The notes: generated from the sequence alone by a model not told the origin. Shown: positions 1,459-14,030, numbered from the stretch's first letter. The stretch: DNA of 54,083 bases from a virus (IMGVR_UViG_2534682338_000012:1-54083); one strand, 5' to 3'. Made by a program: numbers and translations.

Positions 1459-2622
1459 TTACACATCATTAGTACCTTCCTTATTTTTTGACTGGGACAA
1501 ATTTGGGACCGATGGGTTCAGGATCGAGTCTATTTGCCGTGCGTGTTCGGTAAGGTGATTAGGTGCAAGGTGAGCATATCGACGAACCATTTCGATAGAC
1601 TCCCAGCCTCCCATTTCCTGTAACACTGACAACGGGACTCCGGCTTGAACCAGCCAACTTGCCCAGGTGTGTCTCAAGTCGTGAAATCTGAAATCATCAA
1701 TACCAGCCCGTCTCAGCGCCGCTTTCCAGGCTGTGTTTGCGTCATACCGCATCTTCCTTACTGTTGGCGCTTTCGTTCCGTCTGGTTTGGTACAGCTTTC
1801 CTTGTACACAAATACCCAACGGTGATGATTCCCGATTTGTTTTTTCAATACGCGACATGCAGTATCATTCAGCGCAACGCCAATTGCGCGGTTTGATTTA
1901 CTCTCTTCCGGGTTTATCCATGCCACCCGGCGCTGCATATCTATTTGTTGCCATTCAAGGTTGATGATGTTCGAGCGTCTTAAACCTGTTGCCAGTGCAA
2001 ATTCAACAACAGACTTTAATGGCTCCGGACATTCATCAATCAGCCTTTGTGCTTCATGGGGCTCCAGCCAGCGGATCCGTTTATTCTTTGGTTGAGGCAC
2101 TTTAATAATTGGTGCCTTATCCAGCATTTTCCATTCACGCTCTGCGGCTCTTAGTAGGGCCTTTATAAATGAAAGATGCGTAGCCTTCGTTGCAACGGAC
2201 GCTGGTTTTGGCGTGTATTCTGGAACAGGTTTCCCTTTTTTTCTGCATGCTTCTGCCCTGAGTCTCCAGTTTTCCTCATGACGCCGGTTCGTCATTTTCT
2301 GCATTGCTGAATAAATTTTTGATTCAGTAATGTCTCTTAGTTGCATTCCTGCGAAATGTTGAAGCCAGAATCCGATCCGGCTTTTGTCATCGTCCAGTGA
2401 TTTTTTATGTGCTTTCTCTTCAAGCCACCTGACACACGCTTCCTCGAACGTTATATCAGGTATTTCACCAAGTTTGCTGACCCGCCATGCTTCAGCCTTT
2501 AGCTTGTCATGGAGTTCTGTCGCCTGCCTTTTGTCCTTTGTTCCAAGAGACTGTTTAAATCTTTTACCGTTCGGCAATGTGAAACTGGCGTACCATATTT
2601 CACCTCTGCGGAAGAGTGACAT
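1459..2622 (-). CDS. int: tyrosine integrase, P22 Int-like
   Basis: 387 aa, [33 protein letters not shown]... with C-terminal [10 protein letters not shown]...VRRYAH catalytic region; adjacent to tRNA attachment site. Confidence 0.95.
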
Positions 2623-2849: not shown

Positions 2850-3154
2850 TATTTCACCTCTTGCTGTGACATTGTTGAAAAATGGATACCAGCTCGTTGC
2901 TGCCAGACGATCCAACCGAGAGTCATATCCCATGCCATGTATTCGTTATCGCCGTTTTTTGCTCTCCGACGATCTACTAAGTCACCGAAACGCTTTTCCA
3001 TGAATAATTCATAAGCTTCGCGTTCATCTGGTTCTACTTCCAGAGATAGGAGTGCGATTTCATAAGCACGGCGCTCAATATCGTCTCGCACGTCAAGGCT
3101 GCTGATACGCTCTTTAATTTCTTTAATCAGTTCTTTGTCGGTAAAAGTGGTCAT
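2849..3154 (-). CDS. hypothetical early-left operon protein
   Basis: 101-aa ORF with GGAGG RBS, stop/start overlap with flanking genes (translational coupling). Confidence 0.5.
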   Translation of the reverse strand: MTTFTDKELIKEIKERISSLDVRDDIERRAYEIALLSLEVEPDEREAYELFMEKRFGDLVDRRRAKNGDNEYMAWDMTLGWIVWQQRAGIHFSTMSQQEVK

Positions 3155-3516
3155 TATGCTCCAGCCTCCGGTGCTTTTGGCATTACTGCCCAGTGAGTGA
3201 TATTGACGTTTTCAAGGTCCCCGACCTGAAATGTCCACTGCCATTCTCCGGTTTCTTTTTGTCCCCAGGTGTACCAGAGAGAACGCCAGCCAATTAGCCA
3301 GCCTTCTCCGTTAGCATCGAATAACAAAACACTTTCATTTGCTGGTGGCAGTTCAGCTGACACTGGTATTACTTTGTTTTCCTGTGCTGCACATTTAGCT
3401 TCAAGCGCATCGAATTTACGCACCAGGTATTCAGCATCTGTTTCATTTACTTTCAGATCTCGCGGTACACATCTCCCACGAAGAAACCCTTCCATTTCGA
3501 AAACATTCATGCGCAT
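3154..3516 (-). CDS. hypothetical early-left operon protein
   Basis: 120-aa ORF, ATG start, coupled to neighbours. Confidence 0.5.
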   Translation of the reverse strand: MRMNVFEMEGFLRGRCVPRDLKVNETDAEYLVRKFDALEAKCAAQENKVIPVSAELPPANESVLLFDANGEGWLIGWRSLWYTWGQKETGEWQWTFQVGDLENVNITHWAVMPKAPEAGA

Positions 3517-4043: not shown

Positions 4044-4170
4044 TTTGTTCTCCACGTATATGCGCTGCACCGCGCTGAATTCTGGTAAAAAGAATCCCTC
4101 ACCATCCGGCGATTATTGAGTAAATTACGTTTCCATAAATGCCCCCGCAGGGGCATTTGCAGTAATGAAA

Positions 4171-5060: not shown

Positions 5061-5423
5061 TTAACGACCTGCTGCGCGGAGTTTTCCGTCAGGTTCACCG
5101 GCAAGAGTCAGTAACTGTCCCTGGTCTTCCTGCAGAATAGTCAGGCGACCACCGCGATTGACATACATCGGCGTTTCGGTGGTGTCTTCTTCGGAAATTT
5201 TCCCGCGGTTAGTCGGGCGAACATATGAGAGTTTGTGTTTGATTTTCACACGGTTCTCATCAAATGGTTCGATTTCCAGGTTGAGTGAGACCTTACCTTT
5301 GGTTTTCGTGTTCATCACACCGGAAGCGACTTCACTGAGAACTGCGCCGATTTTGGTTTCAAATACGCCGCCGTCCAGCTCCCCGATAAATGCCTGCACA
5401 TCAGTACTGCGTTCGCTAGCCAT
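5061..5423 (-). CDS. hypothetical early protein
   Basis: Start taken at MASERSTD... preceded by AGGAG; ~120 aa. Confidence 0.5.
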   Translation of the reverse strand: MASERSTDVQAFIGELDGGVFETKIGAVLSEVASGVMNTKTKGKVSLNLEIEPFDENRVKIKHKLSYVRPTNRGKISEEDTTETPMYVNRGGRLTILQEDQGQLLTLAGEPDGKLRAAGR

Positions 5424-5892
5424 TTTGCTGCTCCTCATCATATCGACCCTGCAAGGCCGATTAGTTTCTCCACAAAACAGAGAAGAACACCTGCGGTGGC
5501 AGCCGCCCGGATGGATTGGGTTATGAGCCCGTCGTCCGGTGATGCTCTTCTCTGTTTTGTAAAAAAGGACGGTACCAGCCGGAAGCAAGAGTACAAGCTG
5601 GTACCGCCAGGACTACACACAGCATAAAGTTGTGGTGCCGGGTGCCTCCCGGTGCCTGGCGAAGGTTGCACACCAGGCGGGTGGGTATCTACAGAAGGTC
5701 GACTGTCAGCCTCAACCTTAACCCGCGTGCGCTGAGCCGCATTCACCACAACGCTAAGAATTCTCTCTGGTTGAAAATACTTAGCTGTTATGTGCCTGCT
5801 TTTAGCCACATCAGGCGAGGTGGACCTGGTTATTCCCCAACAACAAGGATTCGGTTAATCTGGTTATCCCCAACAACGCAAAAGGAAAAGAA

Positions 5893-6327
5893 ATGTCCGG
5901 TAATATCTACACGTTGTACAAATCCCACTGTGAAAATGTTGGAAAGTATCGGGGCATTGAAATCAGTGGGGTAGTGTCATCAGTCGAAATAAGTAAAGTT
6001 GAATCAAGGGCAACATTACTTACTCTTCTGGACCTTGTCTTACATGAGCACCGGAAGAAATTCGGCACTCCCTATAATCAGTTGAATGGGAAAAAGGCTC
6101 TGGTTCACCTTATTCTGATGAAGCATCACTGGATGCCAAAGCAGATTAATGAGATGAAATTTGATGAACTTCTTCTTTCAATTCAGGATGAACTCACGCT
6201 TGATAAAATAAGCGTAACCGCCCAGAAATTTTTAGATTATCGAGACTGGAGATCACAAATTCATCACTTTGATGATTTTGACGAAAATGAATGGGATCCT
6301 AATTTGTCTGCACAATATCTAAAGTAA
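5893..6327 (+). CDS. hypothetical accessory (moron) protein, 144 aa
   Basis: ATG with AAGGAAAAG RBS, AT-rich by eye, opposite orientation to surrounding early genes, preceded by tandem direct repeat. Confidence 0.5.
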   Translation: MSGNIYTLYKSHCENVGKYRGIEISGVVSSVEISKVESRATLLTLLDLVLHEHRKKFGTPYNQLNGKKALVHLILMKHHWMPKQINEMKFDELLLSIQDELTLDKISVTAQKFLDYRDWRSQIHHFDDFDENEWDPNLSAQYLK

Positions 6328-6505
6328 CATCCTGTGATAAAACCGTGATTTCCTGATCCAGTTTTTTTAAGGAGTCTATTGTTTCCTGTCGATAAGACAG
6401 CACTTCACGAAGCTGGTTTATAGCTGCCAGCTTCTTTGTCATCCACTCATAAATTTCCTCATCTGTGTAGCCAGGCGCGACGATTTTGGGTTCTGTTTTG
6501 TGCAT
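6299..6505 (-). CDS. small hypothetical protein (68 aa), first ORF downstream of putative pL
   Basis: Start at MHKTEPK preceded by GAGGAGG RBS; 3' end overlaps the convergent 144-aa gene by ~29 bp. Confidence 0.4.
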   Translation of the reverse strand: MHKTEPKIVAPGYTDEEIYEWMTKKLAAINQLREVLSYRQETIDSLKKLDQEITVLSQDVTLDIVQTN

Positions 6506-6567
6506 TTCACACCTCCTCAAGTTATCAGTTACTTGTTGAAGGGGACCAGATTGTTAAAGAGCTAAGC

Positions 6568-6597
6568 GTCCTGTAGGGCGCTTTTTTGTTGCTAACG
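6568..6597 (+). terminator. putative rho-independent terminator (+ strand)
   Basis: GCGTCC-loop-GGGCGC imperfect stem followed by TTTTTTG. Confidence 0.3.
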
Positions 6598-6664
6598 AAT
6601 CATCCTGGACTTCATATGCCCCAGGCGGCTACTTCGTGGGCGTCCTGCCTGTTCGTTGTTTCTC

Positions 6665-6700
6665 TTGGGTACATTATGTATCTTAAAGGTACATTGTCAA
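6665..6700. promoter_or_regulatory. putative OL operators / pL region
   Basis: GGTACAttaTGTA and AAGGTACA motifs related to the palindromes found between cI and cro. Confidence 0.4.
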
Positions 6701-6703
6701 GTA

Positions 6704-6731
6704 TAAAAAAACCTGCCGAAGCAGGTTCATA
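6704..6731 (-). terminator. rho-independent terminator downstream of cI
   Basis: On minus strand: AACCTGC-TTCG-GCAGGTT stem followed by TTTTTTT. Confidence 0.5.
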
Positions 6732-6739
6732 AACATTGA

Positions 6740-7414
6740 TTAGGCTTTGATTTTGTATCTTCTTGGTTTTCCTGAGAAAATCACTGTACCAATTATAGAG
6801 CAATTACCGTTGATCTTAATGTAAGGCTCAGGCCAGTTTGGGTTTAACGCTTTGAGATAACGCTGTGTCCCATCTTCTATTAACCTTTTGAAGGTGGTTT
6901 CACCTGTATCGTGCATCAATGCAATAACGTCGTCACCGTGGCAGGCAGGTACTTCAGGATCGACAAAAATCATGTCTCCCGGGCGGTACTCATCAATCAT
7001 TGAATCACCTATCACCCGCAAGATATAAGTCATTTCCCCACAGGGTACAGGGCAGGGATACGTTTCTGCTGTGCTCAAATCAACCTCAGAATATCCAACT
7101 TCTTTCCATGCTCCGGCCTGTACCCATGATATGACAGGGACTAATGTGATTTGTTTATTAGTGATTGAAACATCAGGTTTTTTTGTGATGTTCGTTGTCT
7201 GGTGTTCTTGATCGAGCCATCCGACAGGTAGGTCGAAACATTTTTCGATGTGTCGTGCCATGCTGTCACCGATATTTTTAGTAGCACCATCTCCCATAAA
7301 CCTGCTGGTCTGGGTTGGCTCGCGATCAATCATAGTGGCAAAGGAAGAATTCCCGCCAACACCATCTCTCAGTTTTCTGGCGTTAGACCGCCGGATGTCA
7401 TGGATTGTTTTCAT
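6740..7414 (-). CDS. cI: CI-like prophage repressor with LexA-like S24 peptidase domain
   Basis: 224 aa; N-terminal HTH region, C-terminal GDSM serine and downstream Lys typical of S24 autocleavage domain; divergent from cro. Confidence 0.9.
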   Translation of the reverse strand: MKTIHDIRRSNARKLRDGVGGNSSFATMIDREPTQTSRFMGDGATKNIGDSMARHIEKCFDLPVGWLDQEHQTTNITKKPDVSITNKQITLVPVISWVQAGAWKEVGYSEVDLSTAETYPCPVPCGEMTYILRVIGDSMIDEYRPGDMIFVDPEVPACHGDDVIALMHDTGETTFKRLIEDGTQRYLKALNPNWPEPYIKINGNCSIIGTVIFSGKPRRYKIKA

Positions 7415-13277: not shown

Positions 13278-14030
13278 ATGAACCTTGAAGCTTTACCAAA
13301 ATATTACTCCCCAAAATCTCCAAAATTGAGCGATGACGCACCGGCGACAGGCTCGGGTGGTTTAACAATTACAGATGTGATGGCTGCGCAGGGGATGGTG
13401 CAGTCGAAAGCACCGCTTGGGTTTGCCTTATTCCTGGCAAAAGTTGGTGTTCAGGATCCTCAGTTTGCGATTGAAGGTCTGCTCAATTACGCGATGGCAC
13501 TGGATAACCCGACATTGAACAAATTGAGTGAAGAAACCCGGCTACAGATCATTCCTTACCTTGTGAATTTTGCCTTTGCTGATTATTCCAGGTCTGCGGC
13601 AAGTAAGGCTCGCTGTGAGCGTTGTGCTGGTACTGGATTTCATAATGTATTGCGCGAAGTGGTGAAACACTCCAGAAGCGGGGAGTCTGTTATCAAGGAA
13701 GAGTGGGTGAAGGAACTATGTCAGCATTGTCATGGTAAGGGAGAAGTCAGCACAGCGTGCAGAGGGTGTAAGGGTAAAGGTATTGTCCTGGATGAAAAAA
13801 GAACCCGGCTTCATGGTACGCCTGTTTATAAGATTTGTGGGCGTTGCAATGGAAAACGGTTTAGTCGTTTACCAACCACACTGGCGCGGCATCATGTCCA
13901 GAAACTGGTACCAGACCTGACGGATTATCAGTGGTACAAAGGATATGCAGATGTCATTGATAAACTGGTTACAAAGTGCTGGCAGGAGGAATCTTACGCT
14001 GAAGCACAATTGAGAAAGGTGACAAGATAA
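13278..14030 (+). CDS. late-gene antiterminator Q-like protein with zinc-finger repeats
   Basis: 250 aa with CxxCxGxG repeats (CERCAGTG, CQHCHGKG, CRGCKGKG, CGRCNGKR); positioned immediately upstream of late promoter/lysis region. Confidence 0.55.
   Translation: MNLEALPKYYSPKSPKLSDDAPATGSGGLTITDVMAAQGMVQSKAPLGFALFLAKVGVQDPQFAIEGLLNYAMALDNPTLNKLSEETRLQIIPYLVNFAFADYSRSAASKARCERCAGTGFHNVLREVVKHSRSGESVIKEEWVKELCQHCHGKGEVSTACRGCKGKGIVLDEKRTRLHGTPVYKICGRCNGKRFSRLPTTLARHHVQKLVPDLTDYQWYKGYADVIDKLVTKCWQEESYAEAQLRKVTR

Follow-up and report, generated by a model that had tools for sequence, protein, structure and literature searches.

A divergent STnc100-family RNA followed by an intrinsic terminator in the early-left operon of a lambdoid prophage

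The intergenic region at positions 5424-5892 of a 54,083-nt viral sequence (IMGVR_UViG_2534682338_000012, hereafter the window) encodes a divergent member of the STnc100 RNA family (RF02076), to which EcOnc27/sRNA103 belongs. The window itself represents an SfV/Kati-type lambdoid prophage. On one side the region is bounded by a yfdP-like gene on the minus strand, the ATG of which is at 5423, and on the other by a plus-strand ORF of 144 aa at 5893. The locus is transcribed leftward, on the minus strand, as is the early-left (pL) operon, and consists in this order of a 5' hairpin (P0), the STnc100 core, a linker, a terminator and a separate leader hairpin (Table 1). It probably functions as an STnc100-type, trans-acting sRNA that ends at the terminator, which would also gate early-left transcription. 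What is new here is a sub-threshold copy of an already known prophage sRNA family, accompanied by a terminator of the usual kind and by another conserved hairpin in the leader.

The inverted repeats described in the initial annotation of the region are real and exceed chance expectation. One of them pairs 5472-5496 with 5536-5560 (25 nt, 84% complementary as DNA, 39-nt spacer), and the other pairs 5570-5579 with 5597-5606 (10/10 matched). They had been called nested, but the two repeats sit side by side, and the only nested part is the small Y-shaped top within the long hairpin. The region is indeed GC-rich (G+C of 0.52-0.575, compared to 0.37-0.49 in the flanks) and strongly folded, as the minus strand reaches -189.1 kcal/mol (z -5.4 relative to dinucleotide shuffles), and the hairpins taken alone give z values of about -7 (long hairpin) and -5 (second hairpin). 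The strand, however, had been missed. The plus-strand fold is weaker (-165 kcal/mol, z -2.8), and positions of the long stem that read as A.C mismatches on the plus strand are G.U pairs on the minus strand, which together identify the element as a minus-strand RNA.

Table 1. Features of the region and of its pL-proximal surroundings in the window.
Feature	Position	Strand	Description
cI	6740-7414	-	own terminator, then candidate pL
Candidate pL	6673..6700	-	TTGACA-16-CATAAT, just past the cI terminator; strong promoter-like match
Upstream block	~5830-5795 (within 5795..5892)	minus-strand reading	CCACCTCGCCTGATGTGGCTAAAAGCAGGCACATAAC, ~40 nt, upstream of P0
P0 5' hairpin	5753..5785	-	GCUAAGUAUUUUC...GAGAAUUCUUAGC, abuts the core; fold -11.8 kcal/mol, z -5.3
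STnc100-family core	5627..5754	-	~125 nt; Rfam and R1 match, fold, covariation
P1	5752-5744 with 5637-5629	-	fold
P2	~5740-5725	-	fold
P3 closing helix	5724-5721 with 5686-5683	-	fold
Pseudoknot	5719-5713 with 5668-5662	-	AAGGUUG with CAACCUU (P4 loop), 7/7 bp, perfect, unique
P4	5678-5671 with 5661-5654	-	fold
P5	5652-5638	-	CCGGG-AGGCA-CCCGG; fold
Linker	5609..5628	-	UUUAUGCUGUGUGUAGUCCU, ~20 nt, unpaired in folds, between core and terminator
Intrinsic terminator	5561..5608	-	13-bp stem 5608-5596 with 5580-5568, then C + U6 (5566-5561)
Long leader hairpin	5470..5562	-	20-22-bp lower stem, Y-shaped top, then conserved GGAGAAAC; -47.8 kcal/mol, z -7.0
yfdP-like (phrog_204) start	5421..5461	-	small hairpin 5461-5442, Shine-Dalgarno GAGGAG 5436-5431, ATG 5423

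An Rfam scan, which the initial annotation had proposed, finds STnc100 in the region, although under the gathering score. In permissive mode the sole significant match is STnc100 at 5782..5559(-), with 40.5 bits and an E value of 2.6e-7; it is full length (model positions 1-206) but falls below the gathering score of 47. At gathering thresholds, the same window yields no STnc100 and only a tRNA at 1369-1441. This tRNA gene (plus strand, 71.8 bits) lies beside the integrase ORF (1459-2622, minus strand) and is probably the attachment site of the prophage. P2 of the subfamily misfits the Rfam consensus, and in the window it is of the UGCGGCUCAGCGCA type, which is shared with three other family loci (L013, L061 and L081) and differs from Rfam STnc100.

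To build a model of the family, 39 representatives with a mutual identity below 85% were selected, and 30 of them, diverse IMG/VR copies from outside the phage group of the window, were aligned to give the covariance model R1. In the window, R1 recovers the core (67.9 bits, E 3e-17, model positions 1-124) as the only strong match in 54 kb; a second match at 4059-4168 (14.5 bits, E 0.028) was dismissed as chance, P5 being missing from it. Bona fide late-region copies score 60-96 bits with the same model, and the relatives of the window score 68.2 (SfV), 67.8 (ST64B), 73.7 (phiES15), 50.4 (e14) and 28 bits (Kp4866-6). P1, P2, the closing pairs of P3 and P5 are all present in the family order. 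In addition, the near-invariant 22-mer CACCGGGAGGCACCCGGCACCA, the best-conserved part of the Rfam alignment, occurs once and without mismatch in the window, at 5654-5633(-), and recurs in over 120 IMG/VR contigs, the flanks of which differ widely.

Folding and covariation, also proposed at the outset, showed that the base-pairing is conserved in relatives and that compensatory changes are present. Across 110 R1 matches from 85 sources, 96.8% of the cells are paired, compared to 41-51% when the partners are slid. The consensus helices P1, P2 and P3 are each 94-98% paired, with changes on both sides in 15 of the 20 pairs (110 copies). P5 hardly varies, and the core ACCGGGAGGCACCCGG is almost never changed. 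When copies are collected from an independent 5' anchor, the 22-mer is exact in 76 of 113 distinct copies and differs by one base in a further 33; these differences are mostly C-to-U, which preserves G.U pairing in P1. In the Klebsiella phage Kp4866-6, which is only distantly related, P5 reads GGUGG-AGGCA-CCACC, so that the stem is compensated and the loop is left unchanged.

The segment after P2 pairs with the P4 loop to form a pseudoknot, which is not marked in the Rfam structure line and was derived in the present analysis. It is found at the same relative positions throughout the family and is represented by 30 distinct helix sequences. Own pairs score 6.8 and cross-pairs 4.5 (Mann-Whitney p = 4e-14) in a positional contiguous-helix test; a broad duplex-energy test was swamped by G+C-rich background pairing. 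In phiES15, the helix is doubly changed to AAGGCUG/CAGCCUU. A structured RNA or an sRNA had been among the first suggestions for this region, and the match to STnc100 in sequence and structure, the covarying helices and the retained pseudoknot bear this out.

Like STnc100 copies in general, including EcOnc27/sRNA103 of the Stx2 phages, the window copy combines the core order P1-P5, the 22-mer, a 3' linker and an intrinsic terminator, and it is likewise prophage-borne and co-oriented with the downstream operon. It differs from the typical member in its location, which is the early-left operon instead of the interval that separates Q or stx from the lysis genes, in carrying the extra P0 hairpin with no promoter abutting P1, in scoring under the gathering threshold, and in being followed by the long leader hairpin. 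Membership in the DicF family (RF00039) was rejected (the match has 16.7 bits and an E value of 0.7, and the gathering score is 48), and the other Rfam matches in the region, to ftsZ-DE and the hairpin ribozyme, have chance-level scores. DicF is an sRNA of the Qin prophage that is processed from the repressor-controlled, early-left-type dicB operon. Its terminator stem (UGGCGGUAYCAG.../...CCGCC) resembles those of the window and e14, but DicF is 53 nt long, has no structured core, and its unpaired 'seed' sequence differs from that of the window.

P0 is kept in e14 and, with another sequence (GAUAAGAG.../...CUCUUAUC), in ST64B, and it occupies the position that the promoter takes in other family copies. 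On the 3' side, the linker motif UGCUGUGUGUAGUCUU is kept in e14, Kp4866-6, phiNP and phiES15, and nearly so in ST64B, despite differences in the core or the terminator, which makes it a candidate pairing (seed) region. The GGTACCAGC hairpin that comes next had been set apart from simple terminators on the ground that neither strand carried a U-run. On the minus strand, however, GCUGGUACCGUC is directly followed by C-UUUUUU, and the hairpin is therefore an ordinary intrinsic terminator directed toward the early-left genes; the plus strand has AAAAAA before the same stem and no U-run after it. The terminator (-23 kcal/mol, z -5.0) lies within the 20-40 nt past P1 that are expected of a family member, and was missed by a consensus terminator scan solely because its loop is longer than 8 nt. 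Terminators of different sequence are found at this position in ST64B (GUCGGCGUC.../...GACGCCGAC-CUUUUU) and in phiES15 (GCCCGC-UUUC-GGGCGGGC-CUUUUUUU).

The long hairpin past the terminator is a separate element, located in the 5' leader of the yfdP-like gene. Its 20-bp stem is 96% paired in five phages (the window, e14, ST64B, Kp4866-6 and phiNP), compared to 39-50% in slid controls. Three pairs are altered on both sides (A-U to C-G, G-C to C-G and G-C to A-U), three others are changed on one side to a wobble pair, and an invariant U.G pair as well as the G.U/U.G variants of the stem exist on the minus strand only. Within this set of five sequences, the pattern supports conservation of the pairing by compensatory changes. 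The module formed by the terminator, the hairpin and the 5' end of yfdP is also present in Stx2c phages and in phage cdtI (95-96% identity), where it occurs without the STnc100 core. In e14, the terminator and the long hairpin stand directly ahead of xisE.

The element is abundant. Matches to the 469-bp region were found in 2,782 of 5,426 complete E. coli genomes, 1,626 of them with at least 80% coverage, and almost all of the latter show 95-99% identity. The family as a whole spans many Enterobacterales genera. Most of its copies are situated in the interval from Q to the lysis genes or immediately past stx2B (one locus, L053, being a case of the latter) and are always co-oriented with the downstream genes; many carry a TTGACA-17/18-TAAATT promoter that ends ~7 nt before P1, as well as their own terminator. 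A minority, consisting of the window, L081, ST64B, phiES15 and e14, belongs to the early-left operon, where the copies lie past the repressor gene. There is no annotated ORF between cI and the RNA in ST64B. Furthermore, tandem arrays of three to six STnc100 cores, some of them 7-17 nt apart and with no terminators in between, were observed at four loci (L210, L240, L208 and L237), and a run of three cores on the Pantoea plasmid pAPP145_2 (L210, 947-1991) closes with a single linker and terminator.

In the sampled genome and phage records, including those of SfV, Kati, ST64B and e14, the region is either blank or assigned to a hypothetical protein such as YmfH, and never to an RNA. The ymfH gene of E. 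coli K-12 (e14, 3502-3813 of L166) overlaps a decayed copy, in which the 22-mer has a 1-nt deletion and one substitution. The svsR/co293 sRNAs (NC-SV, e14) were considered as possible counterparts and rejected, as they map to other places, namely the 3' end of cI and the vicinity of icd. A further small RNA of the isrK family was noted in the early-right region of ST64B (L162, 5231-5307(+), 64.3 bits, above the gathering score).

Transcription through the region likely starts at the candidate pL. An identical pL promoter stands ahead of a gene-free structured leader in phage cdtI, and in the window a 73-aa ORF and then the plus-strand 144-aa ORF lie between pL and the region. No sigma-70 consensus promoter was found on either strand of 5424-5892, and a sigma-54 promoter was discarded since the TGGC-N-GC spacing at 5812-5797 is broken in e14 by one extra base. 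Consequently, a discrete sRNA would require 5' processing of the ~1.1-kb pL transcript or an unrecognised promoter. The upstream block recurs beside unrelated flanks in e14, SfV, phiES15, Kp4866-6 and the Hafnia phage Pocitis76, and could be a promoter or regulatory region either for the RNA or for the divergent plus-strand gene at 5893. In the window, it is preceded by direct repeats of 16-19 nt (5819-5837 and 5853-5871) that are 34 bp apart, and similar paired repeats before the block CCACCTCGCCTGAWGTGG-N-AAAAGCAGGCA were seen in the window (5819-5871) and at L163 (~3210-3290) and L289 (1470-1560). In Pocitis76, a terminator-like hairpin begins ~25 nt past the block, and sieB adjoins.

Additional structured elements were observed in the pL leaders of this phage group. 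An exact rrn-type boxA (GCUCUUUAACAA, 6562-6551(-)) is located in the pL leader of the window after a hairpin at 6564-6583 and upstream of the first early-left ORF, and it is common to window-type loci such as Kati. BoxA is associated with NusB and S10; on this basis, it could shield the long untranslated pL leader from Rho, and it may support Nus-factor antitermination in an operon without N. Closer to pL, a block (CGAACAGGCAGGACGCCCACGAAGUAGCCGCC) followed by a hairpin is shared by the window (~6590-6650(-)), ST64B (L162, ~3100-3165) and phiNP (L165, ~3210-3270), and the stem of this hairpin covaries (CCUGG/CCAGG in the window, CCGGU/ACCGG in ST64B and CCCGG/CCGGG in phiNP).

In phages cdtI (L287, 2720-2840) and phiNP (L165, 2620-2800), P1-like flanks (GUUGUGG.../...CCACAAC), the linker, the terminator and the long hairpin are shared with the window, but the internal core is unrelated, has no AGGCA hairpin and gives no R1 match. 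From the sequences, this looks like a cassette-like exchange of structured cores in pL leaders. Phages cdtI and Kp4866-6 share a further conserved leader of ~300 nt. Just 5' of P1, T-arm/acceptor-like minihelices (UCUGG-UUCGAUU-CCAGA and GUCCG-UUCGAUU-CGGAC) were seen on the minus strand of Kp4866-6 (L163, ~2830-2940) and phiNP (L165, ~2810-2900). ARAGORN calls no tRNA in the relatives with T-arm-like hairpins, and a tRNA or tRNA-like gene was rejected for this reason; the minihelices may be RNase P or RNase Z processing signals.

Eleven STnc100 copies are present in EDL933 and are transcribed in the lysogen, and one of them is Northern-positive (PMC5331693). EcOnc27/sRNA103 is located just downstream of stx2B, where it is reported to overlap part of the predicted STnc100 (PMC12711010), and was found to be positive in Hfq-CRAC and on Northern blots (PMC7873438). 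Its overexpression raised fimZ and espA (PMC7873438, PMC12711010), and a link with clinical outcome has been described for the copy next to stx2 (PMC12711010). In at least eight Sakai prophages, sRNA 'dyads' occupy the interval from the late promoter to the lysis genes (PMC7873438), and the structurally related PasD RNAs (PasD1/PasD2) of EPEC were found by Hfq RIL-seq (bioRxiv 10.64898/2026.05.13.724894). Discrete accumulation and Hfq binding are known for late-region copies only (PMC5331693, PMC7873438). The lambda pR'-tR' 6S and StxS RNAs and the EHEC dyads are likewise short, terminated, Hfq-bound RNAs that head a phage operon, and the 6S/StxS-type terminator is passed only by modified polymerase (PMC7873438); these are late-operon units, whereas the element of the window belongs to the pL operon. 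No AsxR- or AgvB-type antisense partner was detected in the window (no Rfam match at E up to 10).

On this background, the following sequence of events is proposed. After loss of the repressor, polymerase starting from pL would halt at the terminator, and 5' trimming would leave a stable RNA of about 230 nt. The unpaired linker, the terminator hairpin and the U-tail would constitute an Hfq-type 3' module, through which the RNA could act in trans on mRNAs or other sRNAs, as has been reported for the EHEC/EPEC members. The same terminator would limit transcription into yfdP-xis-int, and the transcripts that read through would carry the long hairpin, most plausibly as an RNase III, stability or translation-control element. 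In addition, the near-invariant AGGCA hairpin and the pseudoknot suggest that the core may also contact a conserved host partner.

Several other explanations of the region have to be weighed against this proposal. That it is simply a small protein gene, a YmfH-like ORF of 123 aa at 5438..5809(-) that is annotated as a protein in e14 and some phages, has next to no probability. The window, e14 and ST64B do have an open frame of 116-126 aa, a PHROG search gives a weak match (phrog_33599, over 37 residues), and RefSeq names the ORF YmfH in e14. Nevertheless, the mismatches by codon position (8/16/12, 11/22/16 and 19/22/19 in comparisons with e14, ST64B and Kp4866-6) lack an excess at the third position, the comparison reveals many frame-breaking indels of 1-2 nt, and the frame is lost in Kp4866-6 and phiES15. 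The ORF moreover overlaps the covarying RNA structure, and the neighbouring ORFs have no Pfam family. On the substitution pattern and the indels, a coding YmfH-like ORF was rejected, in agreement with the earlier impression that the region holds no convincing ORF. A cis-acting processive antiterminator RNA, either put-like, as put forward in the initial annotation, or a nut-like site, would let pL transcription pass terminators without N. In its favour, the element is a structured RNA in the early-operon leader of a lambdoid phage without N; in ST64B, cdtI, phiNP and e14, it precedes the first early-left genes within a pL leader that is long and poor in genes; and the ymfH-xisE-intE unit of e14 is SOS-induced despite the terminator (PMC2634741). 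The absence of an N-like protein was confirmed for the ORFs scanned between cI and the region, yet the boxA of the pL leader offers an alternative route of antitermination. A Q-type antiterminator is encoded at 13278-14030. The put RNA is ~70 nt long with two stems (PMC9378689) and does not form a unit with a terminator behind it. It suppresses terminators further along by contacting the beta' zinc-binding domain of RNA polymerase; for STnc100, such an action is indirectly contradicted by the family copies that terminate at their own hairpins and accumulate in lysogens (PMC5331693). Neither BLAST nor R1 detects similarity to HK022 putL/putR or to the putL-like RNA of HK639: BLAST of window positions 5300-6750 against the latter returned 8-nt chance matches only, compared to E 4e-9 for the HK639 versus HK022 put control, and R1 finds nothing in the HK022 put region. 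HK639 itself carries a put RNA at pL and, separately, an unannotated STnc100 copy in its late region (L288, 44808-44925(+), 83.8 bits), located between Q and the holin gene and followed by one of four annotated terminators. Furthermore, the majority of family copies, which have a promoter at P1 and end at a terminator of their own, reside in the interval from Q to the lysis genes, where self-antitermination would express the lysis genes in lysogens; these late-region copies accumulate as discrete sRNAs (PMC5331693), and cdtI and phiNP place unrelated cores in the same frame. Given the lack of put similarity, the presence of both elements in HK639, the lethality expected of self-antitermination in late copies and the discrete RNAs, the put-like idea is unlikely, and antitermination by the element in any of these forms is given very little weight. 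Riboswitch-type antiterminator pairing, in which the 3' part of the core would engage the terminator, is no better than in shuffles (mean best helix 4.6 versus 4.75), and a classical transcriptional riboswitch platform is not present.

The remaining alternatives concern the role of the core. It is a possible, albeit doubtful, reading that the core does not base-pair with other RNAs but is bound by a conserved host protein or a small ligand, for which it would be a decoy, sponge or sensor; its occupancy might also tune the terminator. The multi-helix pseudoknotted fold, the conservation of the 22-mer with its mostly wobble-compatible differences, the exchange of the P5 stem around a retained AGGCA loop in Kp4866-6, the arrays of cores without intervening terminators and the breadth of the family across Enterobacterales genera all favour it, but the alternative pairing between core and terminator does not exceed that of shuffles, and Hfq association is documented for family members. 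A bare punctuation of transcription by the terminator(s) and an mRNA leader hairpin, with the core being an inactive relic in this location, is improbable. It would account for the lack of a recognisable promoter in the window copy, for e14, in which the 22-mer is decayed and the terminator and hairpin are intact, and for the occurrence of the terminator-hairpin-yfdP module without the core in Stx2c phages and cdtI. Against it, the window copy retains every family helix, a perfect pseudoknot and an exact 22-mer, and 1,626 complete E. coli genomes match the region at 80% coverage or more, almost all at 95-99% identity. A trans-acting, terminator-ended sRNA remains the preferred interpretation of the locus as a whole. 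Still, the pseudoknotted core, the near-invariant hairpin including its stem and the terminator-free arrays are features not usually seen in a seed-type sRNA, and they hint at an activity of a different kind. Speculatively, and with a rather low probability, the STnc100 core could be a pseudoknotted, aptamer-like domain that binds one host macromolecule or metabolite via the AGGCA hairpin, and not a seed-type sRNA. Such a domain may head phage operons (pL here, the Q-to-lysis interval elsewhere) and multiply in arrays, and it may be one of several exchangeable cassettes carried between the same P1 flanks in pL leaders of the SfV, cdtI and phiNP type.

To conclude, the identification of an STnc100-type RNA corrects annotations in which this region is blank, YmfH or a hypothetical protein, and adds the early-left operon to the late region as a location of the family. 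For a prophage RNA family of very high abundance, testable structural features are now available in the pseudoknot and in the invariant AGGCA loop. If the core does prove to be aptamer-like, it would represent a novel class of phage RNAs, reprogramming the host through sequestration or sensing.
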